Shown here piece after piece: positions 7,543-28,277 of a stretch of 64,000 nucleotides of DNA. Made by a program: the position numbers and the translations under genes. How positions within the stretch are numbered: position 1 is the stretch's first letter; each line of letters starts with the position of its first letter. Origin of the DNA: Pedobacter sp. (GTDB taxonomy: Bacteria; Desulfobacterota; Desulfuromonadia; Desulfuromonadales; Syntrophotaleaceae); contig JBFWJC010000005.1 of the NCBI GenBank assembly GCA_050253415.1, positions 96,001-160,000 on the forward strand, read 5' to 3'. The notes beneath the pieces are model-generated. The model saw nothing but the letters and a program-made list of their open reading frames with translations. It was not told where the DNA came from and did no database searches.

Positions 7543-7573
7543 GACCTCTCCTCTCGCATGTTAGTTTGGAGGG

Positions 7574-7604
7574 AAGATAAACCCTCCCACCATTGGAAGG
7601 TCAA
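7574..7604 (-). promoter_or_regulatory. CueR-type promoter/operator of copA
   Basis: The minus strand reads TTGACC-19 bp-TATCTT with the dyad ACCTTCC...GGGAGGGT, the classic MerR-family extended spacer. Confidence 0.85.
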
Positions 7605-7674
7605 GGGAAAAGTTCACCGGTTCTCTTGGTGAGCTTTTCCTGTGTGAGACCCTATCAAGACAGATTGCACCGAT

Positions 7675-7773
7675 TTGCAAGCAGGTTTGCTCGACAGAAA
7701 CAGGGTGCCTGCGTGGCGTTCGTTCGCCACTGTGTCGAACCGTTGGTGCCAGGCCAAGATGGCTGGCGACTTC
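7675..7773 (-). mobile_element. Short IS110-family transposase relic
   Basis: The translation EVASHLGLAPTVRHSGERTPR resembles the IS110 Transposase_20 motif (A/T)SYLGLxPxxxxSG. There is no full ORF. Confidence 0.4.
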
Positions 7774-8198
7774 ATCCTCCAACTTCCGCCATAAATCCAG
7801 CTCCCAGCCGATGGTCAGGGAACCGGTGTAATTCCTGTCACTATCCTCCTCAGCACCAACAGATGCGCCTGCTTCGACAGTCGGTTTTCTTGTACCTTGG
7901 GCTGACGATATTCGGCCCGGCAGATACGCAGGGTCAACTGGGTCTGTTGCAATCCAGGATTGGCTGCATGAGCCTCGGAAACCAGAGCCTCGATCTCAGG
8001 CGAACCGATCAGTTCACCAAAAATGGATGTCTTTTTGCCACCGTCGAGCCTGGTCCAGCTTTCAATTTGACTGCTTTCCTATCTGGCCTTGGCCAGGTGG
8101 TCCACATGCATTCCCGGATTGCAGGTAATTACCATCAAGGCCCCGAGGGGAAGCAGCGCCTTAATAAAAACAAAGGGTTGCAACATCGTTTTCTCCAT
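7774..8198 (-). pseudogene. N-terminal fragment of a TolC/OprM-family outer-membrane efflux protein
   Basis: Contains ELIGSPEIEALVSEAHAANPGLQQ and, after a frameshift near 7895, YTGSLTIGWELDLWRKL. There is an in-frame TAG at 8079-8081 and the gene is truncated. Confidence 0.65.
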
Positions 8199-9097
8199 TG
8201 ATCAAGCTGATTTCGGTTCTATGCCACCGTACCGAAATCAGCTTGACCTATTGTTAGCAGATGGAGGGTTAATAATTGGTTAAGGGGAAAATTGTGTACT
8301 GTGATTACTCTTCAGCGGAATGAGAACGTTTCTGAAAAATGATCGGGTGTCAGGATGACAAGAGTGTGGCCAAGGGCAGGTGGCAACAGTCCAATCAGTG
8401 GCGTAAAAGGACAGCGCCCCTGAAAAAGAAAACCATCGTGTCATTCTCCAAAGCTAAAACCGCCAAGCCTCGTGAAAGGAGAAGACGCAATGGTCGAATG
8501 CAGTGTAAAACTGCAGCACCATCTGGCTGGCCACAGTTGTATACTTGTCTTTGTATACTTGTCTAACAGGCGGTGTTCTGATGACAGTTTAAGTCAGGTT
8601 CGGCGCACTGGGCCGAAACATCCTTTCGCTAGATTCCAATATTTTCAGTTATCCAAATAGTTATCTCGTTTTTGCGTCTTGAACAAAAGAAGGTAAATAG
8701 CAGGGATATTGCAATTCCTCAATTCTAAGACACCAGCCGCCATCAAAAACGGCCCTCCAAGGAAGATACTGGTAGGGCCGTCTTTTTTTATGTCTCAGAA
8801 TGATTTTAGGCTGACTAAGGACTGCTTTTCTGTTTTTCTCAAAATCCCTGAGTAATAGGTACGGCCTGCCTGGTCTGCCAGGGGCCTTTGCATTTTAAAA
8901 TCTATCGTTGCTGTTAATTGACGCGCTTTGCCGATGAAGAAAGGTACTCACACGGGTAAAAGGTCGCTCCGGTCGAAGCCCTAACAAATTTCTTTTAAAA
9001 AGTCTTGCACGAAAGGCGCGACAGTAATATTACTAGCGTGAAAATTTTTCGGTGTCGATTTGCGTTTCCGTCAACCCCTACTTTCGAGATCCATAAA

Positions 9098-10774
9098 ATG
9101 ATTGAACCTTTTAAGATGGGCTACACCGTTCTGGGCGGACTCGGGATTTTTATCCTTGGAATGAAATTTCTGTCGGAAAGCCTGCAGATGCTTTCCGGAG
9201 GGCTGATCCGGAAGGCTATCTCTTCCGTCACCACCAATCGTATTCTGGCGGTGCTGGTCGGCCTGAGCGTCACCGCCTTCGTCCAATCTTCGTCCATTAC
9301 CACGGTTATGGTCGTCGGCCTGACCAACGCTGGCCTGATGCAGCTAAGTCAGGCGATCGGTGTCATCCTTGGTGCCAACATCGGAACCACCATTACGGGC
9401 TGGATTCTTGCCGTCAATATCGGCAAGTACGGCCTGCTGCTAGTCGGCATCGGTATCTTCCCGATGCTCTTCGTGAAAAATGAACGTATTTCGGGAATCG
9501 CCAAAGTTCTGGTTGCCCTGGGCATGATTTTTTTTGGTCTGGAGATCATGAGCGGGGCTTTCAAGCCGCTACGTGATGCCGAGGGCTTCAGGAACCTGAT
9601 GCTTATCCTCGATGCCCGATCGTTGCCGAGTCTTCTCGGCTGTGTCGCTATCGGCTGCCTGATGACCATGGTCATCCAGAGCAGTTCGGCGATGCTCGGC
9701 ATCACCATGGCCCTCGCTACGACCGGAGCCATACCTATGCAGACGGCCGTCGCCCTGGTACTGGGGGAGAATATCGGCACCACCATTACCGCCCAGCTCG
9801 CTGCCCTCGGCGGTACTTTTACTGCGCGGCGGGCCGCCATGGCCCACAGCATGTTCAATATTCTGGGGGTACTCGTTATTATCTCGTTCTTTTCTCCCTT
9901 TATGGGCATGGTCGAGACATTGGTCCCCGGCGCGGCCGATTACGTGAACAGTGCAGGGAGTCGGCCCTATATCGCTGCCCATATTGCCTTCGGTCACTCT
10001 TTTTTCAATATTGCGGCGACACTTATCATGCTGCCTTTTCTCCAATATCTGGAGAGGGTGGTTGTTAAAGTCGTGCCGGAGACCGGAAGGGCAGGAACGG
10101 GGCCATTCAAGTATATCGGTCCGCCCGGCAGCATGCCGGTGGCCATGGGAGTTTCGATGGTCCACGAGGAACTCAAACGGATGCAGGGAGATGTGCAAGA
10201 TGCCTTGCACCTTGTCGGTGACCTGTTGCAGCCGGACCTTAAGGGGCGGGATCGCTTTTACCAGAAGGTAAAAGCGATAGAAGAAGAGACCGATCTCATG
10301 CAGAAAGAAATCACTACCTTCACCGTCTCATTGATGCAAGCCGGCCAAGCTGGGCTGGACCAATCGGATCGGGCCTATGCGTACGTTCGCGCCGCAGACG
10401 AACTCGAATCGATTGCTGACTATGCGGTTTCGATCACCACCTATATGAAGCGGCTCGAAAAGAACGAACTCGATTTCAGCGAAGACGCCTGGCAAGACCT
10501 GAAAAACTTTCATGCCAAGGTTGTTGCTTTTTTCACTCTGGTAGAAAAGACCCTTCACAGCGAAACCAGCGACAGCATGATCGTCGTACGCGAGGAAGCT
10601 GGCCGACTCAACGAATTGGCCGACGAAATTCGCGACTCTCACCTTGGCCGAATGAAGGCCGGTTCTTGTGGGGCCTTGTCGGCTCTAATCTTTAGCGATA
10701 TGGCGATTGCCCTGCGCAGGATCAAGAACCATACCGTCAATCTCCACGAAGCGCTATCTTTGGAAGTCCAATGA
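9098..10774 (+). CDS. Na+/Pi cotransporter family protein with PhoU-like C-terminal domains
   Basis: Two QSSS repeats (VQSSSITT, IQSSSAML), GANIGTT and GENIGTT motifs, and a helical C-terminus with LESIADYA. Confidence 0.9.
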   Translation: MIEPFKMGYTVLGGLGIFILGMKFLSESLQMLSGGLIRKAISSVTTNRILAVLVGLSVTAFVQSSSITTVMVVGLTNAGLMQLSQAIGVILGANIGTTITGWILAVNIGKYGLLLVGIGIFPMLFVKNERISGIAKVLVALGMIFFGLEIMSGAFKPLRDAEGFRNLMLILDARSLPSLLGCVAIGCLMTMVIQSSSAMLGITMALATTGAIPMQTAVALVLGENIGTTITAQLAALGGTFTARRAAMAHSMFNILGVLVIISFFSPFMGMVETLVPGAADYVNSAGSRPYIAAHIAFGHSFFNIAATLIMLPFLQYLERVVVKVVPETGRAGTGPFKYIGPPGSMPVAMGVSMVHEELKRMQGDVQDALHLVGDLLQPDLKGRDRFYQKVKAIEEETDLMQKEITTFTVSLMQAGQAGLDQSDRAYAYVRAADELESIADYAVSITTYMKRLEKNELDFSEDAWQDLKNFHAKVVAFFTLVEKTLHSETSDSMIVVREEAGRLNELADEIRDSHLGRMKAGSCGALSALIFSDMAIALRRIKNHTVNLHEALSLEVQ

Positions 10775-14214: not shown

Positions 14215-14249
14215 AAAGCCGGGCTGGAATACCAGCCCGGCTTTTTTTT
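14215..14249. terminator. Bidirectional terminator
   Basis: aaagccgggctgg-aata-ccagcccggcttttttt. Confidence 0.8.
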
Positions 14250-16383
14250 AACTGTTCAGTTGCTGTACCAGTTGGTCTATGGTTGTGACGGGTGCCAGGC
14301 AGGTCCGCCCCCGGCACAGGTAGGCTGTGGTCTTGCCATTCTGCATAATCTTGTCAGCTACCAGTGGGGACAGTTCAGCGAGTGTCGTATCGTTCGGCGT
14401 TTGCCACAGAATCATGAGGTTGGGTCGAAACGCGTCACGGGCTGCTGTGATCATGCATAAGGCGTCGGGATCGTCTTCTGGTGCTGCGATGACCAGAATT
14501 TCCTGATCGGAAAGGGCCATGTTCAGCGCCATGAGTAACTGGCTACTGCCGGTTGGCATCTTTGTCCACTGGGTGGAAGATGCCAGTAAAATTTTCTCGA
14601 CGTGGTCTTCGAGCTCCATGTTGCCGGTTAATCTGGCCAGACGCAACAGTGCCATGGCTGCCATGGCATTCCCTGAAACCATGGCACCGTCATGCAGAGT
14701 CCGTTTGCGTACCAGAACCTCTTCGGCATCGGTTCCGGTATCGTAATAGGTGCCATCAGGGCTGCCGAAAAGCTCTTGCATATCTTTTCCCAGCTGCAGA
14801 GCTTCTGCCAAATAGCGACTATCGAAGCTGGCCTGATAGAGTTCGATAAGGCCCAGAATCAGGGCGGCATAGTCTTCCAGAAAGGCCAAAATGCCGGCCT
14901 GGCCTCTGCGCCAGCGCCGCAGCAAGCGTCCCTTGTCGTCACGCATGGCAGTGAGAATGAAATCCGCTGCCCGTAGGGCGGCCGTCAAATATTCGGTATG
15001 TCCCAGCAAGCTGAATGTACGCGCCATGGCGGCGATGGTCAGGCCGTTCCAGGCCACCAGTACTTTGTCGTCCCTGTGGGGGCGGATGCGCGATTTGCGA
15101 GCCTCAAACAACTTGCGCCGGCCGTCTTCCAGTACGGGGCCCAATTCTTCCGTTGTCGTGCTGAACCATTGGGCCCACTCTTTCAGGTCCATTTCAAGCC
15201 TGGGGATATTGCTCCCTTCAAAATTGCCTTCTTCAGAGATCTCGTAGCAATTACAGAAGATGGTCGCGTGCTGGTGGCCAAGGACGTCTTCTACTTGTTG
15301 CGGTGTCCAAAGGTAGTAAAGCCCTTCGATACCTTCCGTATCTGCATCCTCACCTGAGCAAAATCCCCCAGCAGGCAGGGTCAGATCACGCAACACGTAG
15401 TTCAGGGTCTGGTCGGCAAGCTCGGCGAAAAATATGTCCTTGGTTGACTGGTAAGCATCGAGGGCCGCCAGGGCCACCAAGGCTTGGTCATAGAGCATCT
15501 TTTCAAAATGAGGTACCCGCCAGAAGGCATCGACCGAATAGCGGTGAATACCGAAACCGATATGGTCATACATGCCGCCGAGTCGAATATGCTGAAGGGT
15601 TTTGATGGCCATGGCGCTGGCGTTTTCCAGATTGAAACGGTGGGCGATATGGAAAAGCAGTGATAAATTGTGAGGCATAGGAAACTTCGGTGCGCTGCCG
15701 AACCCTCCGCGCTTAGGATCAAAGGTTTCCATGAACCGCACATAGGCCTCTTTGAGCGGTTCTTCTGAGAGAGATTCAGAGGCAGTGGACGGGCTGCTTT
15801 CGAAGCGTATCAGTGCGTCGCTCAGTTCCTTGCCGGTGGCAAGCAACTTATCGCGATCGGATTGCCACATGGCACCAATTTTTGACAGGGTGGTGATGAT
15901 GCCGGGGCTTTCTCCACGTGCCTGGCGGGGCATGTATGTGGCGGCGTAAAAGGGCGCCTTGTCCGGGGTTAAAAAGATGTTTAGCGGCCATCCTCCGCCA
16001 CCTGTGATCATTTGGCAGGCCATCATGTAAAGGTTGTCGATGTCGGGGCGTTCCTCTCTATCGACTTTGATGGGAATGAAAAGTTTGTTGAGTACCTGCG
16101 CGACCTCAGGATCCTCGAATGATTCGTGTTCCATGACATGGCACCAGTGACAGGTCGAGTAGCCGATGGAAACCAGTACCGGCTTATTCTGCTGCCGGGC
16201 TTTATCAAAGGCTTCCTGTCCCCAGGGATGCCAGTTGACAGGGTTGGTGGCGTGTTGCAGAAGGTAAGGGCTGCTTTCAAATATAAGTCGGTTGTATTGA
16301 TCCCCTCCGTCCGGAGGCAACAGGCTTGTATCGATCTCAGACAGGCGACTTACAACAGTTTCTCTATCCTGCGAATTCGTCAT
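14248..16383 (-). CDS. Thioredoxin-domain protein YyaL/SSP411 family (DUF255)
   Basis: [56 protein letters not shown] and [12 protein letters not shown] motifs. Confidence 0.92.
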
Positions 16384-16523
16384 GAAGACTCCTTGTATGA
16401 ATAAAGAGAAAACAATTTTATTCAGCTTATCAGTAATGAAATGAATACGCAAATAGTCAGGATTTCGATTGTTTCGAATATATCGGGTTTTATCGCCTCA
16501 GGTAGTCCGTAAGAGGCGAAAAA

Positions 16524-16559
16524 GGAAAAAATACCCCGTGGAAGAGGGACTCCACGGGG
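16524..16559 (-). terminator. Terminator of the ATP-grasp/GNAT/KamA operon
   Basis: ccccgtgga/tccacgggg stem followed by a U-rich tail on the minus strand. Confidence 0.65.
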
Positions 16560-16600
16560 CCAGGAAAAATCATTCGTTGAATTTGTAAAGGCAGAAGTGG

Positions 16601-17695
16601 TTATCCGGCATGTGCAACCTGTGCATCGGGCTCTTCTACAGCGGGTAGGGCATTGCGATAGAAATAGCTGTCACCCTGATAATTTTTAAGGGCGACATTT
16701 TCACCCAGGGATTGCAGGTAGTTCGGGAGCAACGGGATCTTGCCACCACCACCGGGTGCGTCTATGACGTAAGCTGGGACCGCCATGCCGGAGGTGTGGC
16801 CGCGCAGGGCCCTTATGACTTCCAGACCTTCTTCGACTGTGGTACGGAAGTGTTCCGTTCCCTGCACAAGGTCGGCTTGATAAATGTAATAAGGACGCAC
16901 CCGTATGCTCAGCAGTTTCTGCATCAGACGTTTCATGACCTCGGGGTTGTCATTGATGCCACGCATCAAAACGGTCTGGTTGCCAAGAGGGATGCCTGCA
17001 TCGGCAAGGCGGGCGCAGGCCTTGGTCGAAGTTGGGGTGATCTCATCCGGATGATTGAAGTGGGTATTGATATACAGCGGGTGGAAACGCCGTAGCAAAC
17101 GTACAAGGTTACTGGTGATGCGTTGCGGCAACACCACGGGCACGCGTGATCCTATCCGGATGATTTCCAGGCTCGGTATGGTTCGTAGTTGCTGCAGGAT
17201 CCAACCGAGTTGCTCATCTGATAGCAACAACGGGTCACCGCCTGATAAAATGACGTCCCGGATTTCTGGATGCGCGCGGATATAGTCGATCCCCGCTTGT
17301 ATGGTGGAACGGTTTATGACCATGTTTTCGCCACCCACCTTGCGCTTGCGGGTACAGAAACGGCAGTACATGGCGCACTCGGAACATACCAGAAACAAGA
17401 CCCGATCCGGATAGCGATGCACAAGGTTGGGAACCGGACTCTGGAGTTCTTCGTCAAGCGGGTCGGGACAACACACGCTGTCTTCAATCTCTTCGATTGA
17501 CGGGATGGCCTGCCGCCAGATAGGATCGCCGGCAGAGCGGATCAAACCAAGATAGTACGGATTAACGCGCATAGGATAGCGCTCTACGACTTCATCGAGA
17601 GGTGCCGGATCGATACCGTAACGACGCAACAGGTCGCCGGGGAGTGTGGTGCTCGCCTGCAAAAGTTTTTGCCAGGTTTCCATGGGTAGCCTCAT
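16601..17695 (-). CDS. KamA-family radical SAM protein (lysine 2,3-aminomutase type)
   Basis: HRYPDRVL, CAMYCRFCTRKR, SGGDPL, HFNHPDE, NQTVL, PYYIYQAD and VIDAPGGGGK (PLP lysine) motifs. Confidence 0.9.
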   Translation of the reverse strand: MRLPMETWQKLLQASTTLPGDLLRRYGIDPAPLDEVVERYPMRVNPYYLGLIRSAGDPIWRQAIPSIEEIEDSVCCPDPLDEELQSPVPNLVHRYPDRVLFLVCSECAMYCRFCTRKRKVGGENMVINRSTIQAGIDYIRAHPEIRDVILSGGDPLLLSDEQLGWILQQLRTIPSLEIIRIGSRVPVVLPQRITSNLVRLLRRFHPLYINTHFNHPDEITPTSTKACARLADAGIPLGNQTVLMRGINDNPEVMKRLMQKLLSIRVRPYYIYQADLVQGTEHFRTTVEEGLEVIRALRGHTSGMAVPAYVIDAPGGGGKIPLLPNYLQSLGENVALKNYQGDSYFYRNALPAVEEPDAQVAHAG

Positions 17696-17740
17696 TGAGG
17701 GCAGAGTAGTGAGCTTATTGTTTCACTTTTAGAGTTCGAA

Positions 17741-18232
17741 TCATCGAACTGCCGTTTCGGTTTGGTTTTGTAGCCTTTTGATAAATGTGATGCGATCATC
17801 ACCGGGTCGATAGAAATCCTTGATGCACGATTCTTCCAGATATCCGGCTTTGCTATAAAAGGTCCGTGTTCGCTCGTAGCTTCCCTGGGAGGAAGTCTCC
17901 AGGCATATCAGGCGACCTTGCAGGCTTTGGCCATAACGTTCTACATGTTCCATGAGACGTTGACCGACCCCTTGCCCCTGAGACCGCGGAGATACGGCAA
18001 TCCAATAAAGGGTGACGTTGCCACTGGTCAGGGGGGTAGGGCCGTAAAGTACATATCCTGCGACGGCTCCGGCCACTTCCGCTACCGCCACCAGATAGTC
18101 ACGCTGAGAGGGATTATCCAGAACAATCTCGAGCAGTTCCATGGCGCAAGCGACTTCTTCTTCGGTAAAGGCGCCGGTGTCGCGTAAAATGCGCTCCAGG
18201 TCAGGCAGGTCCGAGAGTTTTAAATCACGCAT
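17741..18232 (-). CDS. GNAT-family N-acetyltransferase
   Basis: LYWIAVSPRSQGQGVG acetyl-CoA motif A and TRTFYSKAGY. Confidence 0.9.
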   Translation of the reverse strand: MRDLKLSDLPDLERILRDTGAFTEEEVACAMELLEIVLDNPSQRDYLVAVAEVAGAVAGYVLYGPTPLTSGNVTLYWIAVSPRSQGQGVGQRLMEHVERYGQSLQGRLICLETSSQGSYERTRTFYSKAGYLEESCIKDFYRPGDDRITFIKRLQNQTETAVR

Positions 18233-19235
18233 GGGGCGTCTCCTTGCGTTGTTTCGCCATATCGAGAATGCGCTCGATAAGCGCCGGGTAGGTCAGTCCT
18301 CCGGCCCGTGCGGCCCGTGCCAGGCCGGCATCCTGTGAAATGTCGGGATTGGCGTTGACTTCCAGGATATAAGGGACTCCATCACGTAAGCGGATATCCA
18401 CCCTGGCGTAATCCCGGCATTCAAGGATCTTGCAGGCCCGTAAAGCAACGTCCCTGATCAACATGTCCTCCTTGCTCCGCAGGGAAGCGGGGCAAACAGG
18501 TCGGGTACGTTCAAACTCCTCTGACGTTTCCAGCCATTTACCGTCATAACTGACGATAGGGCGCACCAGGCCTTGCTCAAAAACGATTTCGGAGATCGGC
18601 AGAACTTCGAAACGTTTGTCACCTAATACGGAAACGTTAAGTTCGCGCCCCTCGATAAATTCTTCGACCAACGCTTCCTGCCGGTACATGTCATGGATGA
18701 AATGAACTCGTTCCCGAAGAGCCTTGTCCGAGGTGACGACACTGTCGGCGGTAATCCCGAGAGACGCATCTTCCGAGCGTGGTTTAACGATCAGGGGAAA
18801 CGCCATGTCATGTGTTCGCAACATGTGTTGCCCCGGTTTTGCCACGGTATATTTAGGCGTTGGAAGGTGATAGCGAACCAGCAGGTCTTTGGTTCGCGCC
18901 TTATCCTGGGTTAACCCCAGACACAAGGGCGTTGCCCCGGTATAAGGTATACGCATCAGTTCAAATAAAGAGGCGACGTTCATTTCCTGGCCGCTCTCGC
19001 CCCAGAACCCTTCGCACAGGTTAAACGCCACGGCAGGTGCGAGGTGTTGCATCTCGCTTATGAAGGTGGCCAGGTCCGGGCCGAGAGGTACCAGGCGCGC
19101 AGCATACCCACGCTTTTCAAGGGCCTGACGCACTTCTATGGCTTCTTTTTCGGCGCCCTGCTCGGAGATGAGGTCGGCTTGAGATCCCTTAACCGACTGC
19201 GACGGTGCGCGATTGAAACAAACAGCTACTTTCAT
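18225..19235 (-). CDS. Ddl-like ATP-grasp ligase (non-canonical)
   Basis: IPYTG, DK, IVKP..EDASLGI, LVEEFIEGRE, RVDIRL and LEVNANP motifs. AFNLCEG stands in place of the Ddl LHG..GEDG motif. Confidence 0.85.
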   Translation of the reverse strand: MKVAVCFNRAPSQSVKGSQADLISEQGAEKEAIEVRQALEKRGYAARLVPLGPDLATFISEMQHLAPAVAFNLCEGFWGESGQEMNVASLFELMRIPYTGATPLCLGLTQDKARTKDLLVRYHLPTPKYTVAKPGQHMLRTHDMAFPLIVKPRSEDASLGITADSVVTSDKALRERVHFIHDMYRQEALVEEFIEGRELNVSVLGDKRFEVLPISEIVFEQGLVRPIVSYDGKWLETSEEFERTRPVCPASLRSKEDMLIRDVALRACKILECRDYARVDIRLRDGVPYILEVNANPDISQDAGLARAARAGGLTYPALIERILDMAKQRKETPHA

Positions 19236-20271
19236 GATGAGTCCCCGTGAGGTTTAAACGTTCTGCGGCAGCGTCGACGACAGCAAGGATCAGTTCATCG
19301 TAAGACAGGCCTGCGGCGCGGGCAGCTTTGGGAAAGCAACTGTTCTGTTCCGGGCGTGGCAATATGCCCGGCAGGGGATTTAATTCAATGATATGAGGTG
19401 CTCCACGGCTATCAAGACGTACGTCGATGCGGCACCAGTCGCGACACCCTAAAACCGTGAAGGCCCGCCGACAAAGGTCTTCAATATCGGCCTGCAACTT
19501 GAAGTCAAGCAGTGCGGGGCAGGTGAAAATTTGCAACGGGTCTTCTTCGCGGTCCCATACCCATTTGGCTTCATAGGAATAGATAGGGTTGACACCGTCC
19601 GGCAGCGCATCGAAATTGATCTCTACGACAGGCAGGATACGTATACCGCTGCCGTTACCGAGTACTGCCACGGTAAACTCACGCCCGGGCAGAAAATCCT
19701 CGATAAGAGCCGGTTGTCGGTATTGTTCCAGCACCTTCTTGACCTGGCGTACCAGGGCCTTACGGTTATGCACCAGGGAAGCATCAGGCACACCTTTGCT
19801 GGAGCCCTCCAGTATCGGTTTGACCATCTGCGGATAACGCAATCGTGAGGGGATCTGGTCTACGGATGTAACCGTGACAAAACGTGGCGTGGCGACACCA
19901 TGATAGGCGAGAATTTCTTTGGTGCGGCGTTTGTCGAGGCAGATACCGAGGGTCACGGGATCGCTGCCGGTGTAGGCAAGACCCAACATGTCGAGCATGG
20001 CCGGCACCTGTGCTTCGCGACTTGCACCGAGTAGCCCCTCCGACATATTAAAAACCAGATCTGGTTTCAACTGTCGCAGGGTTTCAAAAGCATCGAGGTC
20101 TGCTTCCACCAGAGAAACCTGATGTTTGCGTGCCAGGGCTGACTTCACCGCTTCAATGGTGTGTATATCGTCCCATTCGGCGTAAAGGTCGTCATCGGCG
20201 GAGTAAGGTTCGTCGGAAATAGGTAATACGGGGGGAGCCCCCTTCAGATTGAAGGCGAGAGCGATGTGCAT
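19189..20271 (-). CDS. Ddl-like ATP-grasp ligase (non-canonical)
   Basis: YTGSD, VKPILEGSSKG, IEDFLPGREFTV, YSYEAK, RIDVR and IELNPLPG motifs. VFNMSEG stands in place of LHG..GEDG. Confidence 0.85.
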   Translation of the reverse strand: MHIALAFNLKGAPPVLPISDEPYSADDDLYAEWDDIHTIEAVKSALARKHQVSLVEADLDAFETLRQLKPDLVFNMSEGLLGASREAQVPAMLDMLGLAYTGSDPVTLGICLDKRRTKEILAYHGVATPRFVTVTSVDQIPSRLRYPQMVKPILEGSSKGVPDASLVHNRKALVRQVKKVLEQYRQPALIEDFLPGREFTVAVLGNGSGIRILPVVEINFDALPDGVNPIYSYEAKWVWDREEDPLQIFTCPALLDFKLQADIEDLCRRAFTVLGCRDWCRIDVRLDSRGAPHIIELNPLPGILPRPEQNSCFPKAARAAGLSYDELILAVVDAAAERLNLTGTHHESSCLFQSRTVAVG

Positions 20272-20655
20272 GTTTGAACCCCTTTTTAAAAGCCACGTAC
20301 GAAAAGACCCCCGTAGGGGTTGCCGTTTTTCAGGGGCGGGGTGCCTGGCGGCGGGCGGCGATAAAAAGGGGTTGCTTTTTATGTCGGTCGTCCTGCTGTT
20401 CCCGGCCTGAAACGGCTATGTTTCTTTGCTATATACTCCTGTCCATTTTACCTGTCAACAGTAAAAAAAACGTCTCATAAATGTCTGTAATTATATGGAA
20501 AAAACAACAAAGTAGGCGGTTGTATCCAGCGGTTTTAAAACAAAAAAAAGATTTCGATGCAGCCTCTATCAAGTACGCCTTATAGAGCCTTGGTAGCTTG
20601 ACTTTGAAGGTACATGGGACGTCCATAATCTGAGGTGAAAGTATGGGGCCTTGCC

Positions 20656-20684
20656 TTGACAAATCACCAGTCGGTAACTACATT
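20656..20684 (+). promoter_or_regulatory. Candidate htpG promoter
   Basis: TTGACA-17 bp-TACATT upstream of the aggagg RBS. Confidence 0.5.
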
Positions 20685-20728
20685 GACGGGCGAAATAACA
20701 TGAATATAAAAAGGAGGTTTTAAGACCT

Positions 20729-22576
20729 ATGACGGAAAACGCCAAGGTGGAAAAAGGTAATATTTCCATCCATACTGAAAACATCTTCCCGATTATCAAA
20801 AAATGGCTTTACAGCGAAAAGGAGATCTTCCTGCGGGAACTGGTATCCAACGCCGTGGACGCCATCCACAAACTTCAGCATATTAACCTGATCGAAGGCC
20901 TGCAACTGGCTGATGAATACGCTATCGACATAACCGTGGATAAGGACGCCGGCACTGTTACTATCAAAGATAACGGTATCGGCATGACCGGTGATGAAGT
21001 GCGTAAATATATTAACCAGGTCGCTTTCTCTTCCGCAGAAGAATTCGTCGAAAAATTCAAGGATCTGGAAGATAAAAATCAGATCATCGGGCATTTCGGC
21101 CTGGGCTTTTACTCGGCCTTTATGGTTGCGGAAAAGGTTGAGATTTATACCCGTTCCTATCAAAACGATGCTGCTGCCATGCATTGGGTTTGCGAGGGAT
21201 CGACCGATTATTATCTTGAAGAGTGCGATAAAGAAAAGCGTGGGACCGAGGTGGTTTTGCACCTGTCCGCTGATGAAAAGGAGTTTCTTGAGGCTGTCCG
21301 GATCCGCGAGGTATTGAAGAGATTCTGCAACTTCCTGCCATTACCGATCCGTTTGGCCGGAGATGTGGTGAATGACCAAAATCCTTTGTGGGCTCAGTCT
21401 GCGACGGATCTCACCGACGAAGACTACCTGGGTTTTTATAAAAAGCTCTATCCCCTGGCAGAAGATCCCTTGTTCTGGATCCACCTGAACATTGATTATC
21501 CGTTTAATCTGAAAGGGGTGCTGTATTTCCCCAAGCTGACTACCGAATTCGATGTGGCCAAGAGTTATATCAATCTATTCTGCAATCAGGTTTTTGTTTC
21601 CGACAACTGCCCTGAATTGATACCTGAATTTCTCAATCCCCTGCAGGGTTGTCTCGACGCTCCTGATCTGCCCCTCAACGTCTCCCGCAGCTATCTGCAG
21701 AACGAACCTCAGGTTCGTAAAATCCGCGAAGTCATCAGCAGTCGCGTAGCTGCCAAAATTGCCGAACTCGGTAAAGGCGATCGCGATAATTTCATCCCCG
21801 TGTGGGACAATATCCATACGTTTGTCAAGTATGGCATGATGCGCGATGATAAATTTTACGACAAACTTAAGGATCAGGTCATTTATCGCATCGCAGGTAA
21901 GGGTGACTATACCACTCTGCCCGAATATCTAGAGAGAGCTGCCGGCAAACACACCGATAAGGTGTTCTATACCAATAATGAAGCGGCTCAAAGTACCTAT
22001 CTGAAACTTTTCGCCAACCAAGGCATGGAAGTTCTGGTGCTTGATAGCCTCATCGATAGCCATTTCCTCCAGTTTCAGGAGATGAAAAACGATAAGGTAA
22101 GTTTTCAACGGGTCGACAGCGATCTGACCGAGAACCTCATTGAAGAGGACTCCAAAATCCAGTTGCCCGGCAAGGATGAACGTAAGGAGCGGGCAGAGCT
22201 TATTCAAAAAGCATTCGAAGAAACACTGAAGGTAGATGGGCTTTCGGTGCGAGTAGAAAATCTCAAGGATGACAGCGTTCCGGGGATGGTGATTCTTTCA
22301 GAACATACGCGTCGTTTGCAGGAAATGACCAAAATGATGGGCAAGGGGGATGAAAATCTTTTCGGTGGTCATACCCTGTGTCTTAACGCCAAGTCCCCCG
22401 TGGTCGAAACCATCCTGGGCCTTAAAGATCAGGGCCGTGAAGAGGATGCCTCCATGCTCATGGAGCAAATCTATGACCTTTCTATGCTGCCTCACTGCGC
22501 CTTTGATAAAGATCGTATGGCGGCGTTTCTGGAGCGTAGCAATCGGATTCTCTGTAAATTCGGGTCCCTCGGTTAA
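20729..22576 (+). CDS. htpG: Hsp90 chaperone HtpG
   Basis: LYSEKEIFLRELVSNAVDA, DNGIGM, IGHFGLGFYSAF and DLPLNVSRSYLQ motifs. Confidence 0.97.
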   Translation: MTENAKVEKGNISIHTENIFPIIKKWLYSEKEIFLRELVSNAVDAIHKLQHINLIEGLQLADEYAIDITVDKDAGTVTIKDNGIGMTGDEVRKYINQVAFSSAEEFVEKFKDLEDKNQIIGHFGLGFYSAFMVAEKVEIYTRSYQNDAAAMHWVCEGSTDYYLEECDKEKRGTEVVLHLSADEKEFLEAVRIREVLKRFCNFLPLPIRLAGDVVNDQNPLWAQSATDLTDEDYLGFYKKLYPLAEDPLFWIHLNIDYPFNLKGVLYFPKLTTEFDVAKSYINLFCNQVFVSDNCPELIPEFLNPLQGCLDAPDLPLNVSRSYLQNEPQVRKIREVISSRVAAKIAELGKGDRDNFIPVWDNIHTFVKYGMMRDDKFYDKLKDQVIYRIAGKGDYTTLPEYLERAAGKHTDKVFYTNNEAAQSTYLKLFANQGMEVLVLDSLIDSHFLQFQEMKNDKVSFQRVDSDLTENLIEEDSKIQLPGKDERKERAELIQKAFEETLKVDGLSVRVENLKDDSVPGMVILSEHTRRLQEMTKMMGKGDENLFGGHTLCLNAKSPVVETILGLKDQGREEDASMLMEQIYDLSMLPHCAFDKDRMAAFLERSNRILCKFGSLG

Positions 22577-23994: not shown

Positions 23995-24154
23995 TGCGAG
24001 ATTCATTCGATTTCCTTTTTGTCTGTATCATTAATCCCGATCTCTGGAGAAGATTTTCGCTTCAGATATCGGGATAGTTTATAAATGTATCACCTGTTTG
24101 ATAAGTAAAATATCCATCAAAATTCCTTCCCATTGTCCTGATTTCATCCATCAC

Positions 24155-25816
24155 TCAGGTTTTATTAATTCCCTTCCCTTTTTGCAAGAGCACCTTTACT
24201 GGAAAATATATAAAGAGTAAAAAAAGTGCCAGTAAACTAACAAGCTTACCTGACACTTCCCAAACATCTTCGACAAGTTTCAACGTAATAATATGATTAC
24301 CAGGGGGAACGGATACCTGTATCATGCCATTTTCCCCAGGTATTGCTTCAATATAGTTTTTAGCGTTGTTTATTCGGATTTTCCATAGAGGTAAATAGAA
24401 CTGATTGATTGTGACCGTAAATGGATGATTTGAAGATCCCTGCATTTCAATATCTCTCGGCAACCATTTTAGGATTCTTATTTGACCCACACCAGAGATA
24501 TTGAACCTATTATCTAATTTATTTAATTTTCTATGATGAATAGCTAATACTGTTTCATTAGAAGACCATCGAGGAAGATACTCAACGACGCCAACTTTGG
24601 CTTTAGTTTCACGTGAGACCCTAGTTATTTGTTTGTAGGACAATTCCTGAATCTTAAATGGAACAAGTTTTATAAATACAGATGCAACTTGTGAAATAAG
24701 AATAACAATCACAAAAAGTTTCAATACAAAGGCAATTTTATTAATTGTGTAATTCCTGAAATTTAATATTATAGAAATTGACACTATTGTTGCAATCAAG
24801 GTTATTTGATTTAATCTCCAAGGAAATTGTATTTTGCTTATCAATGGAATTGACTGCCAAATAAATGAAGAAATCTCAAACATCATAAAAATAGAAAGGC
24901 AACCGGAGAGAATCCAGAATGAGAGATCTTTATTTTTTGGTGTTTTAATTATGGTGCATATTATCAGTAAAATTAGATTGATTAAGGATAATCCTAGAAA
25001 GTAATTATTGTTTATTCCTTTTTCAAACGATAAAAAGTGATTATATAGTGAATAAGTTCCTTCCCACATTTTATTTAAACTTATGTATTTTTGATAAAAA
25101 ATCATTGGAAATATGTAGAATGAAGACAATAAAATACCGTAAAGCATAGAGAGTGATACGTATAATAAGTTTCTTATATAGTTATTTGTAGTTATTGGGT
25201 ATATTAATAATAGTGGCGTTAGAATTAAAAAAGTTGGTATGTGAGTTACTAGAAGTAATGCATAAGATATTGATAGACCTATTGTTGCCTTCTTTTGGCT
25301 GTGGAAAACTCCTATAGCAAAATAAAATATGAGTGGAGTCCAGGTGAATGCCCATATTTCTGGATAAGAAAATCTTTGATAAAAATTCACAAGTAAATGG
25401 AATGGTGCCAAGATGTAAAAAAGAGATAAAAAGAAAGCATATTTTTGTTGCGTATAATTTTTTAAAAGTGTGTAACAGGTGACACCAGATAAACCAAGAG
25501 CTAAGCCAATAGAATAATAAAGGGCATACCACTTTGGATGATGGTCTGGAATAAAATACTCGAAGAATGAAGAGATATAAAACGGTAATGGTGGGTAAAA
25601 AAAGAAAACTGGGCTACCTCGCCCTCCATTCATATCTATCAACCATCTTGGGTACCATTCTCCGGCGAGAAATTGGTCCGAGAAGCAATTATGCCAATTT
25701 GAGTATATGAGAATGTCATGACTTACAATCATTCCTTGGTAGAAGGCTGGAATTGTCAAAAGAAATCCCAAGGCAATAAATATTAAGTAAACTAATATGT
25801 TAGATTTGGGATTCAT
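24155..25816 (-). CDS. Polytopic membrane protein, GT-C-like (PTPS-related/YfhO-like)
   Basis: HD in the first loop, WYPRWL...G.GSPVFFFYPPL, QFPWR, many TM segments and a C-terminal soluble domain. The gene is AT-rich. Confidence 0.7.
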   Translation of the reverse strand: MNPKSNILVYLIFIALGFLLTIPAFYQGMIVSHDILIYSNWHNCFSDQFLAGEWYPRWLIDMNGGRGSPVFFFYPPLPFYISSFFEYFIPDHHPKWYALYYSIGLALGLSGVTCYTLLKNYTQQKYAFFLSLFYILAPFHLLVNFYQRFSYPEIWAFTWTPLIFYFAIGVFHSQKKATIGLSISYALLLVTHIPTFLILTPLLLIYPITTNNYIRNLLYVSLSMLYGILLSSFYIFPMIFYQKYISLNKMWEGTYSLYNHFLSFEKGINNNYFLGLSLINLILLIICTIIKTPKNKDLSFWILSGCLSIFMMFEISSFIWQSIPLISKIQFPWRLNQITLIATIVSISIILNFRNYTINKIAFVLKLFVIVILISQVASVFIKLVPFKIQELSYKQITRVSRETKAKVGVVEYLPRWSSNETVLAIHHRKLNKLDNRFNISGVGQIRILKWLPRDIEMQGSSNHPFTVTINQFYLPLWKIRINNAKNYIEAIPGENGMIQVSVPPGNHIITLKLVEDVWEVSGKLVSLLALFLLFIYFPVKVLLQKGKGINKT

Positions 25817-25927
25817 ATATCACATTGATACCTATAAACGTATGGTTCGCAGAACATTTTATCTTAAGTGTGTGTCGGCCGAAGCCTTTTGGCGATAGCC
25901 TTTTCGTCGGTTATCAAATAATCTGAA

Positions 25928-27049
25928 TCAAGCTAGTTTTCTTCCTACTATTTTCCAGATAAGAATCGTCACGGTTGCACTAAGATATCCATCCACTGCG
26001 TAGTGCCAGCCAAGGTGGATCGATCCTATTTGGATGACCACTGCAAAAAAAATCAATAACCAACCTGCCCACCGATCTATGTTTCTATACAGTAGAGCCA
26101 ATAATACTGCGATGGATACATGCATGCTTGGCATGGCGGAAATCCCACCAAGGGGCATGAACCGTCCTATTTGGAAAGCTTCCCAGAGTGATGTTTGGAT
26201 GCCTACGGCCCTGATGCCTGGAATACTATTCAGGTATTCAAAGAGTCCAGCGTAGGGATTGGCGGCAACTCCGGTAACTTCTGAAAAATAGCAGGGTCCG
26301 GCTGATGAGAAAAGTATAGCCAGTATGTTGCCTATCAAAATCCAGCAACAAGCTAAAGAAATAAAAAATTTTAGCCTTAGCTGCCGGTCGGAATGGCAGG
26401 CCATATATAAAAGAGTGTATGCGAATAGCGATACCCATGCCAGATAACAAAAATCGATAAAGAGTGTTATCGGGGGATACCCTATAACCGATTGCAGGAT
26501 TTCCCATGGTGAATGATTGAAGTGTAAAACTTTGTCAATTTTATAAAACGTTAAATCAAATGAGAAAAACTTCCATAAAGGAATGGTCTGCTTGATACTG
26601 CTATAAGAGCAGGCAAAAATTGGTAAAATTGAAAAAATAACAATAAATCTGGTTATGGTGGTTGAGGAAATGTATTGTTCTTTTAATTTTGACCAGATTA
26701 TTGGGATGCCATTGAAACCGTCTTTTGGATTCTTTATTAAGTAAACAACAGTAGAAAATGACCACATGAAAAAGAAAAATGCAAATAGGTATTCAAAAAA
26801 ATCAATATAGTAATAAAAAACATTCCCTGTAATATTAAAACCAATAATATGTCCAATTACAAAAGTGGATGCATAATAAAGTATACATATGTATACAAGT
26901 ACTATGTTTTCAATTAACGACGACTTTAAATCAACAATAAATCTTAATAAAATCAGTGGAATTTGTCCATCGACTAAAGAAAACGAGGAAGACTCTTGGA
27001 TTAGATAGGGTAGGTTGCATTTGAGAATTTTAGATATATAATTTCTCAT
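25928..27049 (-). CDS. PAP2-superfamily (Aur1/IPC-synthase-like) membrane phosphatase/phosphotransferase, copy 1
   Basis: SAGPCYF, AMPSMHV and WHYAVDG motifs. Confidence 0.8.
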   Translation of the reverse strand: MRNYISKILKCNLPYLIQESSSFSLVDGQIPLILLRFIVDLKSSLIENIVLVYICILYYASTFVIGHIIGFNITGNVFYYYIDFFEYLFAFFFFMWSFSTVVYLIKNPKDGFNGIPIIWSKLKEQYISSTTITRFIVIFSILPIFACSYSSIKQTIPLWKFFSFDLTFYKIDKVLHFNHSPWEILQSVIGYPPITLFIDFCYLAWVSLFAYTLLYMACHSDRQLRLKFFISLACCWILIGNILAILFSSAGPCYFSEVTGVAANPYAGLFEYLNSIPGIRAVGIQTSLWEAFQIGRFMPLGGISAMPSMHVSIAVLLALLYRNIDRWAGWLLIFFAVVIQIGSIHLGWHYAVDGYLSATVTILIWKIVGRKLA

Positions 27050-27272
27050 GATTTGATAATGGTCCCGATGTTTAACAGCAATTCCGGTTGTTATCCCGAA
27101 TGAAGGTCATATGATTCCTAAAGGGACTTAAATTTAACCTGAAAGAAAAACAGTATATAAACCACAAGTTTATGATGCTAAACTATAACCATTAAAAATG
27201 ATTTTTCAAACGTTGAAGTGTTACATAGTCAATTATCTTAATATAACATAATGCCGATAGGGCTTTTTTGAT

Positions 27273-28277
27273 ATGAAGTTAATCATCCAGATCCCCTGTT
27301 ATAACGAAGCCGAAATCCTTGATATTACACTGGGCCTTCTTCCGAGGGAGGTGCCTGGATTCGACCGGGTCGAATGGCTGGTCATAAACGATGGCAGTAC
27401 CGATGCAACTTTGGCAGTGGCTAAACGTTTTGGCGTGGATCACGTTGTTTCTTTTAAGAAGAATCAGGGGTTGGCAAAAGGTTTTATGGCCGGTCTGGAT
27501 GCTTGCATTAAGAACGGTGCCGATGTCATCGTCAACCTTGATGCGGATAACCAGTACTGTGTTGACGATATCCCCGCGCTTGTTGATCCGATTCTGCAGG
27601 GCAGGGCTGATCTGGTGGTAGGTGCCAGACCCATCGGTAAGATCGAACATTTCTCCCCACTTAAAAAGTTTTTGCAGAAAGTCGGTAGTTGGGTTGTAAG
27701 GCAGGCGAGCAAAACAGACGTACCCGATGCACCGAGCGGATTTAGAGCTTTCAGCCGTGATGCCGCCATGCGCATCAACGTTTTCAATAAATATACTTAT
27801 ACCCTGGAAACTCTTATCCAGGCTGGTCGGCAGAATATGGCGATCATTTGGGTGCCGGTTAGGGTCAACGGAAATCTTCGTCCATCGCGCCTGATCAAGA
27901 GCCTTCGTTCTTACCTGTGGAAATCGTTGGTGACCATCATTCGCATCTTTGTGGTTTATCTCCCCTTTCGATTTTTCATGGGCATCGGTTTGTTTCTTTT
28001 TGTGCCCGGTTTCTTGTTGGGAGCGCGATTTCTTTATTACTATTTTGGTGGAGATGGGGCAGGGCACGTTCAATCGGTCATTTTGTCCAGCGTTCTGCTG
28101 GGCATGGGATTTCAAACGATGCTGGTTGCTTTTTTGGCAGATTTGCTGGCTGCCAATCGCCAGATGGTTGAAGATATCCGGTTTCGTATCAAGAATCTCG
28201 AAAACGGCGGAGCCTATTCACTGAGCGCTATAAGGAGGACGGATGAAGCTTCTGATAGATCTACAGCATCCAGCTGA
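27273..28277 (+). CDS. GT2 glycosyltransferase (DPM/GtrB-like, C-terminal TM helices)
   Basis: IPCYNE, NDGSTD, DADNQY and DAPSGFRAF motifs. Confidence 0.88.
   Translation: MKLIIQIPCYNEAEILDITLGLLPREVPGFDRVEWLVINDGSTDATLAVAKRFGVDHVVSFKKNQGLAKGFMAGLDACIKNGADVIVNLDADNQYCVDDIPALVDPILQGRADLVVGARPIGKIEHFSPLKKFLQKVGSWVVRQASKTDVPDAPSGFRAFSRDAAMRINVFNKYTYTLETLIQAGRQNMAIIWVPVRVNGNLRPSRLIKSLRSYLWKSLVTIIRIFVVYLPFRFFMGIGLFLFVPGFLLGARFLYYYFGGDGAGHVQSVILSSVLLGMGFQTMLVAFLADLLAANRQMVEDIRFRIKNLENGGAYSLSAIRRTDEASDRSTASS

Follow-up and report, generated by a model that had tools for sequence, protein, structure and literature searches.

What does a bacterium make with two ATP-grasp ligases that resemble D-alanine–D-alanine ligase (Ddl), encoded together with a small GNAT-family acetyltransferase and a lysine aminomutase of the KamA family? 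This question is raised by an operon, from now on referred to as lig1-lig2-GNAT-kamA, in a 64,000 nucleotide stretch of the genome of Pedobacter sp. (Desulfuromonadales; contig JBFWJC010000005.1, positions 96,001 to 160,000). This whole stretch is called the window and corresponds to C5:96001-160000 of the source genome (G000), all of which was searched. The operon represents known enzyme families in an uncharacterised, widely conserved combination with its own undescribed regulatory RNA, located in the 5' leader of lig1. We tentatively propose that its product is an acetylated, polyamine-like β-lysine conjugate whose synthesis would be gated by this leader. A first-pass annotation, made from the DNA sequence, had described four co-oriented open reading frames, the first three of them overlapping and the last followed by one terminator, and all of this was recovered at exactly the same bounds on the minus strand. 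Specifically, the overlap is 47 nt between lig1 and lig2 and 8 nt between lig2 and the GNAT gene, a gap of 45 nt separates the GNAT gene from kamA, and a single terminator-like hairpin follows kamA (Table 1). The same annotation knew of no characterised product and literature searches turned up none; the gene combination is not described in the full-text literature searched, which excludes most subscription journals.

Scanning one genome per species identified 80 loci encoding lig1 relatives, 66 of which are informative, meaning that at least 3.7 kb follow the lig1 start. The order lig1-lig2-GNAT-kamA on one strand is found in 62 of these 66 loci, so that the four-gene unit is syntenic elsewhere and across phyla, an arrangement far beyond chance. 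The exceptions are two Planctomycetota loci with the order lig1-GNAT-kamA-second ligase, one Acidobacteriota locus (L058) without a KamA match and one Wallbacteria locus (L046) encoding lig1 alone. The nearest loci, at 89-90% identity, are found in metagenome-assembled genomes named Pelobacter sp. Based on record titles, carriers belong to the Desulfuromonadales, Bacteroidota, Ignavibacteriota, Acidobacteriota, Planctomycetota and Chlorobiaceae, and the titles mention saline samples in addition to those from groundwater, fen and peat. Of 155 genomes in the order of the source genome, 73 encode a lig1 orthologue (E ≤ 1e-70); the figure is 71 for the 147 genomes of good quality, and orthologues occur in 38 of 55 genera and in two of the four other genomes of the same genus. 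ATPases of ATP-binding cassette transporters found near some loci were rejected as members of the cassette, as they belong to mixed subfamilies and occupy no fixed position.

The KamA protein scores 309 bits against TIGR00238, above the cutoff of 199, and contains the CxxxCxxC cluster motif (CAMYCRFC). It stays below the cutoffs of the AblA equivalog TIGR03820 (477.2 bits, cutoff 525.4), the glutamate aminomutase model (434 bits, cutoff 650) and the EpmB model (253.6 bits, cutoff 369). When aligned with the lysine 2,3-aminomutase of Clostridium (PDB ID: 2A5H, E 1.4e-116), residues D275, D312 and K319 fall without gaps on D293, D330 and K337, the motifs YQAD and VIDAPGGGGK matching YQCD (D293) and VVDAPGGGGK (D330 and K337). 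Presumably, D293 and D330 of the Clostridium enzyme bind the ε-ammonium group of lysine and are replaced in glutamate 2,3-aminomutase, and we take K337 to be the lysine that carries pyridoxal phosphate. The protein ends near residue 375 of 2A5H and has an asparagine at the position of Cys268, and thus lacks the C-terminal cysteine-rich region that is kept by the AblA protein encoded elsewhere in the genome. The earlier assignment to the lysine type, made on the two acidic residues, is upheld by this alignment and by the score against the glutamate model; the protein belongs to the KamA family and, judging by the conserved residues, would act on lysine.

Fusion proteins point to the ligase with which KamA cooperates. 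When the best 120 of 359 matches from a search for longer KamA homologues were classified, 86 were found to contain a Dala_Dala_lig_C domain (PF07478) and 26 a GNAT domain (AblA-AblB-like fusions), the rest being 2 proteins with inteins and 6 others. The KamA-ATP-grasp fusions are about 700 amino acids long and carry the source names Woesearchaeota, Thermoplasmatota, Methanocellales, Nanoarchaeota and Deltaproteobacteria. Their ligase domain resembles lig1 more than lig2 in every one of the 86 (about 300 bits and typically 43-54% identity to lig1, about 170 bits to lig2), and 3 of the 86 have the domain order lig1-KamA. Because KamA is fused to a lig1-type domain in 86 of these best 120 matches, lig1 probably takes β-lysine directly. 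Among the KamA homologues P0003, P0044, P0001 and P0002, two contain intein/homing-endonuclease interruptions and the others are joined to a PF06559/PF22769 domain.

The two ligases share 36% sequence identity. Both pass the PF07478 gathering cutoff of 24 (lig1 121.6 bits, lig2 107.6 bits), and the closest solved structures of both are Ddl and VanA (E 2e-30 and below). In a search with NCBIfam models, neither ligase reached any Ddl or Van family cutoff: against the Ddl model NF002378 (cutoff 243 bits), lig1 scores 184.6 and lig2 169.6, compared with 397.3 for the genome's own Ddl on contig C4. For a comparison of residues, both ligases were aligned with this Ddl and positions were transferred to Escherichia coli DdlB numbering. 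The equivalents of K144, E180, K215, R255, D257, E270 and N272 are retained in lig1 and lig2, which have the same fold and ATP/Mg residues as ligases of the Ddl/VanA type, and we infer that both still form an acyl-phosphate and an amide. The ALHG..EDG stretch of Ddl is changed to FNxxEG..RE in lig1 and to FNLCE..E in lig2; in both ligases the His63 equivalent is a glutamate, located in the FNxxEG motif, and Tyr216 is replaced by tryptophan. The first-pass annotation had stated that FNxxEG replaces the LHG..GEDG motif and that the SxEHEVS motif is missing. The first point stands, and the second holds for the motif as such, but the glutamate aligned with Glu15 of Ddl is kept, being invariant in lig1 (E32, in AEWD) and merely the majority residue in lig2. 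The Ser281 equivalent is retained in lig1 (S311, past an insert of 4 residues that Ddl does not have), while the Ddl Ser-Leu pair S281/L282 has become Ala-Gly in lig2. We take Glu15, His63, Tyr216 and Ser281/Leu282 to have roles in the substrate site of Ddl, with the Ser-Leu pair presumably holding the carboxylate of the second D-alanine (D-Ala2). As this pair is lost in lig2, its amine substrate, the nucleophile of the reaction, probably has no carboxylate close by. Further, the acidic residues gained by both ligases would suit cationic substrates.

A quick IQ-TREE phylogeny of 126 rows (54 lig1, 38 lig2, 22 Ddl from the phylum and 12 fusion domains, with a midpoint root for drawing only) separated the three groups. 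All 22 Ddl sequences form one clan (support 100), lig2 forms another (93) and lig1 together with 9 fusion domains a third (95). Two long branches stand out, one formed separately by the three deltaproteobacterial fusions and one, beside lig2, that holds the second ligase of L049. Taken together, the clans and the fusions indicate that lig1 and lig2 are old, separately conserved paralogues, with lig1 being the KamA-coupled one. The earlier judgement that neither is likely to be a D-Ala-D-Ala ligase agrees with both the scores and the tree. A large family of proteins of 660-850 amino acids, mostly named Myxococcota (P0121-P0240), contains two tandem Ddl-like ATP-grasp modules; these proteins are not Ddl either, and they were rejected as lig1-lig2 fusions because each half is only about 37% identical to either ligase.

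The small GNAT has 2R7H as its best solved relative (E 5.6e-28), deposited as 'putative D-alanine N-acetyltransferase of GNAT family'. Its match to RimI is weak (46 bits, cutoff 86), and no match to AblB (TIGR03827) was obtained at E ≤ 0.001. A canonical ablA-ablB pair is located outside the window on contig C8 (71258-73388), with an AblA of 434 amino acids scoring 762 bits (cutoff 525) and an AblB of 278 amino acids scoring 343.6 bits (cutoff 205). The first-pass annotation had framed the operon as AblA/AblB plus two ligases; since the GNAT is not AblB and the canonical pair is already present in the genome, this frame is wrong. Like the AblA/AblB pathway to N-ε-acetyl-β-lysine of methanogens and green sulfur bacteria, the cassette encodes a lysine-type 2,3-aminomutase and, for the following step, a GNAT in one operon. 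Unlike that pathway, it adds two ATP-grasp ligases, its KamA is a short form (477 vs 525 bits) and its GNAT is 163 rather than about 270 amino acids long. The pair on contig C8 corresponds in kind to the ablA/ablB genes of Pelobacter carbinolicus, for which the genome paper proposes acetyl-β-lysine in salt tolerance (PMC3543383).

The genome also encodes EpmA (335.7 bits, cutoff 287), adjoining efp on contig C2, with a further KamA paralogue 9 kb off; in total, three lysine-type KamA paralogues and one distant one were found. In the EpmB/EpmA system for β-lysylation of EF-P, a KamA-family enzyme likewise feeds β-lysine to an ATP-dependent ligase. The cassette differs from it in that its ligases are ATP-grasp enzymes instead of a paralogue of lysyl-tRNA synthetase and that its KamA misses the EpmB model. 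As true Ddl, ablA-ablB and epmA-efp are all located elsewhere, the cassette is additional to the cell-wall, osmolyte and EF-P systems of this organism.

Clustering of the open reading frames flanking the 80 loci revealed a protein of 585-608 amino acids encoded beside the cassette in 12 Desulfuromonadales loci. In this partner protein, a weak GNAT match at the N-terminus (E 7e-6) is followed by a C-terminal Hist_deacetyl domain (E 9e-79). The solved structures most similar to it are acetylpolyamine amidohydrolases (APAH; 6phr, E 1.5e-73, followed by 9gkz, 3men and 3q9b), with histone deacetylase-like amidohydrolases (HDAH) at about 1e-33. A GNAT in the operon and a co-occurring, often adjacent enzyme with a deacetylase domain closest to APAH resemble the polyamine acetylation cycle of SpeG/SSAT and APAH. 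The likeness has limits, as the substrate would be a β-lysine conjugate and not a classical polyamine, and the partner bears its own N-terminal GNAT-like domain and is seen in Desulfuromonadales only. Among 155 genomes of the order, lig1 and the partner occur together in 59, lig1 alone in 14, the partner alone in 4 and neither in 78, counts that overstate independence, since the genomes are related. Both genes are on one contig in 36 of the 59 genomes, at most 5 kb apart in 29 and at most 500 bp apart in 22, the partner being placed upstream on either strand or directly 3' of kamA. One of the four partner-only genomes, G132, turned out to contain a decayed cassette (L130, G132 C1:914000-923400, at about 7540-9290 of this locus), that has kept an intact leader, lig2 and kamA but retains lig1 only as a 101 amino acid remnant and the GNAT only as 65 amino acids. 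Masked sequence as the cause of the partner-only pattern was thereby ruled out in G132, the one of the four that was checked. Two genes away from the partner gene of the source genome lies a gene for a 225 amino acid protein with a weak spermine/spermidine-synthase domain (24.7 bits, cutoff 22.9; G000 C1:607962-608639, L099:4962-5639).

The gap between lig1 and htpG measures 457 nt. About 155 nt of it, the leader, are nearly invariant between the window and its two closest relatives, L001 and L002, in contrast to the variable remainder of the gap. Using nhmmer, the leader was found directly before lig1 in 45 loci with a single sequence as query and in 51 with a profile, and the source genome contains one copy. 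Both TTGACA and the TATAnn box of the promoter-like site are conserved across 45 aligned related leaders; a consensus promoter scan omits the site because the last base of TATATA is not T. When 4227 Rfam models were searched against 16300-20800, the sole match at E ≤ 1 was a chance snoRNA hit inside lig2 (E 0.8). RNAalifold, run on a MAFFT alignment, gave the anti-Shine-Dalgarno helix only, and the other helices were set by hand and followed by realignment with a covariance model that was built with P0, P2 and P3. This model scores 134 bits in the window (20265-20426) and matches the sense strand of 51 of the 80 related loci, besides two weak antisense matches. In all 51 matching loci the leader ends at the lig1 start codon, and a search of 151 genomes of the order gave a match in 75, nearly always with the same end point. 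The model had no match at the Bacteroidota/Ignavibacteriota loci in which the cassette is located between recG and dnaG (L052-L057, L061-L064, L072-L075 and L080). About 160 nt ahead of lig1, a conserved TTGACA..TATATT promoter of their own is found at those loci, with leaders that measure about 100 nt and fall into at least two types by sequence.

Two alternative helices dominate the predicted structure. The long P1 helix, formed by AACCCCUUUUUA..GCC with GGC..UAAAAAGGGGUU, hides the ribosome-binding site and encloses a small invariant hairpin, GCC-GCCA-GGC, as well as the variable hairpin P3; the P1 pairs are kept in 27-43 of 43 sequences and hardly vary. P0 crosses P1, and both partners vary in 10 of the 11 pairs of its main helix. 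Covariation was scored at 0.278, compared with 0.164 for shuffles (none of 500 as high) and no more than 0.161 with slid partners, and 72% of cells are paired as opposed to 65% in shuffles (again 0 of 500), all counted on an alignment that was fitted to the model and so favours it. Folding energies are -36.6 kcal/mol for the P1 fold and -31.4 kcal/mol for the P0 fold, and barring the ribosome-binding strand from pairing gives a best fold that includes P0. The window leader contains no ATG. P3 was rejected as an attenuator terminator, as the T-run that follows it in the window is not conserved in relatives. The predicted anatomy is that of a two-state translational switch in which the P1 fold would bury the ribosome-binding site and the alternative P0 fold would free it. 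Being conserved, covarying and fixed in place before lig1, the leader has the features of a structured cis-regulatory element, with ligand binding as a putative property.

In six genomes of one family (L124-L129, corresponding to G061, G060, G093, G088, G106 and G103), a copy of the leader is found away from lig1, and these extra copies have the same conserved RNA core as the lig1 leaders. In G060, G061, G093, G106 and, as a partial copy, G103, the operon behind it encodes an MgtC-family protein, a C39-like peptidase and a RLAN-RimK-like ATP-grasp enzyme, together with a GCS2 carboxylate-amine ligase and an FGase-type amidohydrolase. In G060, G093 and G088 the copy immediately follows mgtE, and in G088 a DUF5698/DUF2179 gene comes after it. 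Amidoligase systems of the RLAN/RimK-like, GCS2 and FGase type have reportedly been described by Iyer et al. in 2009, and we take PF14401 to be the corresponding Pfam family. The operon found here is also an uncharacterised amide-forming one, placed in five related genomes behind the same leader, but its enzymes are unrelated, it has no KamA and it is not located beside the window cassette. Because the RNA core is the same, the signal of the β-lysine operon would also govern a second amide-forming operon, one tied to Mg2+-transport genes. As the leader is common to the MgtC operon and the mgtE neighborhood, we think that the signal is cation status, either Mg2+ or polycation.

A somewhat unlikely alternative is that the leader senses neither a metabolite nor an ion and acts as an RNA thermometer, with a U-rich strand over the ribosome-binding site, or as a site for a regulatory protein. 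FourU-type thermometers have a comparable helix over the ribosome-binding site, and P1 is such a helix (CCCCUUUUU / AAAAAGGGG), almost without covariation, in a leader whose folding z-score, taken alone, is only -0.95. A thermometer would, however, have no need of the roughly 100 additional conserved nucleotides with their covarying long-range helix and invariant small hairpin, and the same RNA core stands before a second, unrelated operon.

Returning to the proposed β-lysine conjugate, the pathway would begin with the conversion of L-lysine to β-lysine by KamA. lig1 would use β-lysine directly and form a first amide bond by the Ddl mechanism, with an acyl-phosphate derived from ATP, and lig2 would form a second one with a partner that could well be an amine, for instance a polyamine or the amino group of a side chain. 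A free amino group of the conjugate would then be acetylated by the small GNAT and, in Desulfuromonadales, the acetyl group could be removed or re-set by the GNAT-acetylpolyamine-amidohydrolase fusion, so that acetylation and deacetylation would resemble the cycle buffering polyamines. The first-pass annotation had suggested a β-lysyl peptide or conjugate serving as an osmolyte, storage compound or envelope modification. Its statements that the ligases are not Ddl and that KamA is of the lysine type are supported, whereas the AblA/AblB part of that reading fell with the GNAT. It included neither the leader RNA nor the deacetylase partner nor the KamA-lig1 fusions. The context, namely the APAH-type partner and the leader shared with the MgtC operon, points more towards a polyamine-like cation than towards an osmolyte, a storage compound or an envelope modification. 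A bolder version, which we regard as distinctly unlikely, is that the leader represents a new riboswitch class for Mg2+ or polycation status and that the product is a β-lysine polycation, its charge tuned by acetylation and deacetylation, that replaces Mg2+ or classical polyamines on ribosomes and nucleic acids.

Several points weigh against the proposed conjugate and its gating. What is said here about substrates, the sequence of reactions, the ligand and the physiological function is drawn from alignments and gene context. The link to MgtC comes from leader copies in six genomes of one family, P1 hardly varies and so has no support from covariation, and the folding z-score given above is low. 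The cassette is dispensable in its own order, where only about half of the good genomes carry it. The partner gene of the source genome (G000 C1:609771-611516, 60% identity) is not adjacent to the cassette, and in five cassette genomes of other phyla no partner orthologue was found, only generic HDAC-like genes at about 1e-31, so that the deacetylase does not belong to the system in all lineages. Further, the canonical acetyl-β-lysine pathway of the same genome could also use the deacetylase.

The best surviving alternative for the product, which we nevertheless consider unlikely, is a compatible solute, that is, a neutral or zwitterionic N-acetylated β-lysine di- or tripeptide against salt or drying that would extend the AblA/AblB pathway and resemble N-acetylglutaminylglutamine amide (NAGGN). 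NAGGN is a dipeptide osmolyte made by Ngg, a GNAT/ATP-grasp enzyme. Its synthesis and glutathionylspermidine synthetase parallel the cassette in that a small protective metabolite results from ATP-grasp amide formation coupled either to N-acetylation or to the use of a polyamine as the amine, but they use other ATP-grasp subfamilies and involve neither a β-amino acid nor a radical-SAM step. A KamA protein and an acetyltransferase are indeed the core of the known osmolyte route, the patchy distribution suits an adaptive trait, and acetyl-β-lysine is proposed for salt tolerance in the relative P. carbinolicus in the genome paper cited above. Yet this genome already has a canonical ablA-ablB pair, the GNAT of the cassette is not AblB-like, carriers come from groundwater, fen and peat besides saline samples, and neither an acetylpolyamine-type deacetylase partner nor a leader shared with the MgtC operon and the mgtE neighborhood fits an osmolyte.

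It is improbable that the ligases modify a protein, attaching β-lysine or a short tail in the way that EpmA acts on EF-P or RimK on ribosomal protein S6, with a RimI-like GNAT as the capping enzyme. RimK-type ATP-grasp enzymes do modify proteins, and the weak family matches of the GNAT are to RimI. No candidate target gene, however, accompanies the cassette in the 80 loci, the genome has its own EpmA above cutoff beside efp with another KamA paralogue nearby, the known members of Ddl-type ligases use small substrates, and the partner deacetylase belongs to a small-molecule (acetylpolyamine) subfamily. Highly improbable is a bioactive β-lysine natural product of the streptothricin kind, with acetylation for self-protection and deacetylation for activation. 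β-Lysine occurs in several antibiotics, resistance through acetylation of the β-lysine amino group is known and an acetylase/deacetylase pair matches the logic of a pro-drug, but no exporter, non-ribosomal peptide synthetase or resistance gene accompanies the cassette in the 80 loci, and its neighbours have housekeeping functions (recG and dnaG at the Bacteroidota and Ignavibacteriota loci, htpG here). Finally, a cell-wall role of lig1 and lig2 as spare or alternative D-Ala-D-X ligases, which their best solved relatives and retained catalytic Mg/ATP residues might suggest, is close to refuted by the missed Ddl/Van cutoffs, the true Ddl in the genome, the separate clans, the replacement of His63 and Tyr216 and the joining of lig1-type domains to KamA in proteins source-named archaeal, including Thermoplasmatota.

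Upstream of the operon, htpG is encoded divergently and downstream, past the terminator, lies a DUF255 thioredoxin-domain gene (window 14248-16452). This gene is also found 3' of the cassette in L001, L002, L012, L015, L026, L028 and G132, and its position probably reflects lineage synteny rather than membership in the operon. Elsewhere in the window, at 24001-28000, the G+C content falls to 0.33-0.40 (surroundings about 0.50); this stretch includes the gene for a 553 amino acid multi-pass membrane protein (24155-25816, minus strand) and may be a foreign island.

Table 1 Features of the operon and its leader, in window positions.
Feature	Position	Strand	Description
Promoter-like site	20429..20457	-	TTGACA 20457-20452, 17-nt spacer, TATATA 20434-20429
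Structured 5' leader	20272..20426	-	about 155 nt; candidate riboswitch or translational switch
P0, 5' strand	20401..20416	-	GCCGUUUCAGG-C-CGGG; pairs with 20322-20340, crosses P1
P1, 5' strand	20362..20373	-	anti-Shine-Dalgarno, AACCCCUUUUUA; pairs with 20277-20288 in the minimum-free-energy fold
P0, 3' strand	20322..20340	-	CCCG-CC-CCUGAAA-AA-CGGC; inside P1
Variable hairpin P3	20307..20320	-	all 4 stem pairs with compensatory changes across relatives
P1, 3' strand	20277..20288	-	UAAAAAGGGGUU; includes the ribosome-binding site 8 nt before ATG
lig1	19189-20271	-	360 amino acids; Ddl-like ATP-grasp ligase, probable KamA-coupled partner; PF07478 E 3.9e-35
lig2	18225-19235	-	336 amino acids; second Ddl-like ATP-grasp ligase; PF07478 E 7.8e-31
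Small GNAT	17741-18232	-	163 amino acids; Pfam GNAT families
kamA	16601-17695	-	364 amino acids; short-form KamA-family protein, putative lysine 2,3-aminomutase; Pfam LAM_C and Radical_SAM
Intrinsic-terminator-like hairpin	16533..16560	-	11 pairs, 7 of them G-C, then T-run ATTTTTTCCT; closes the operon 3' of kamA

In bacteria and archaea, β-lysine is known as an osmolyte precursor, a modifier of EF-P, a fermentation intermediate and a building block of antibiotics. The cassette would represent a fifth, uncharacterised use, with order and content conserved over at least five phyla and a core that is fused in many archaea. It also offers handles on its own function, as lig1 is singled out as the probable user of β-lysine, the partner deacetylase hints at the type of molecule, the leader RNA could be used for ligand fishing and as a reporter, and the MgtC operon beside mgtE provides a hypothesis for the signal. 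If the polycation reading is true, the cassette would be part of a widespread, unrecognised branch of polyamine biology, with the KamA-lig1 core, often fused, found in many anaerobic bacteria and archaea. Identifying the product would assign a function to thousands of genes that are labelled 'D-alanine--D-alanine ligase' or 'KamA family protein'.

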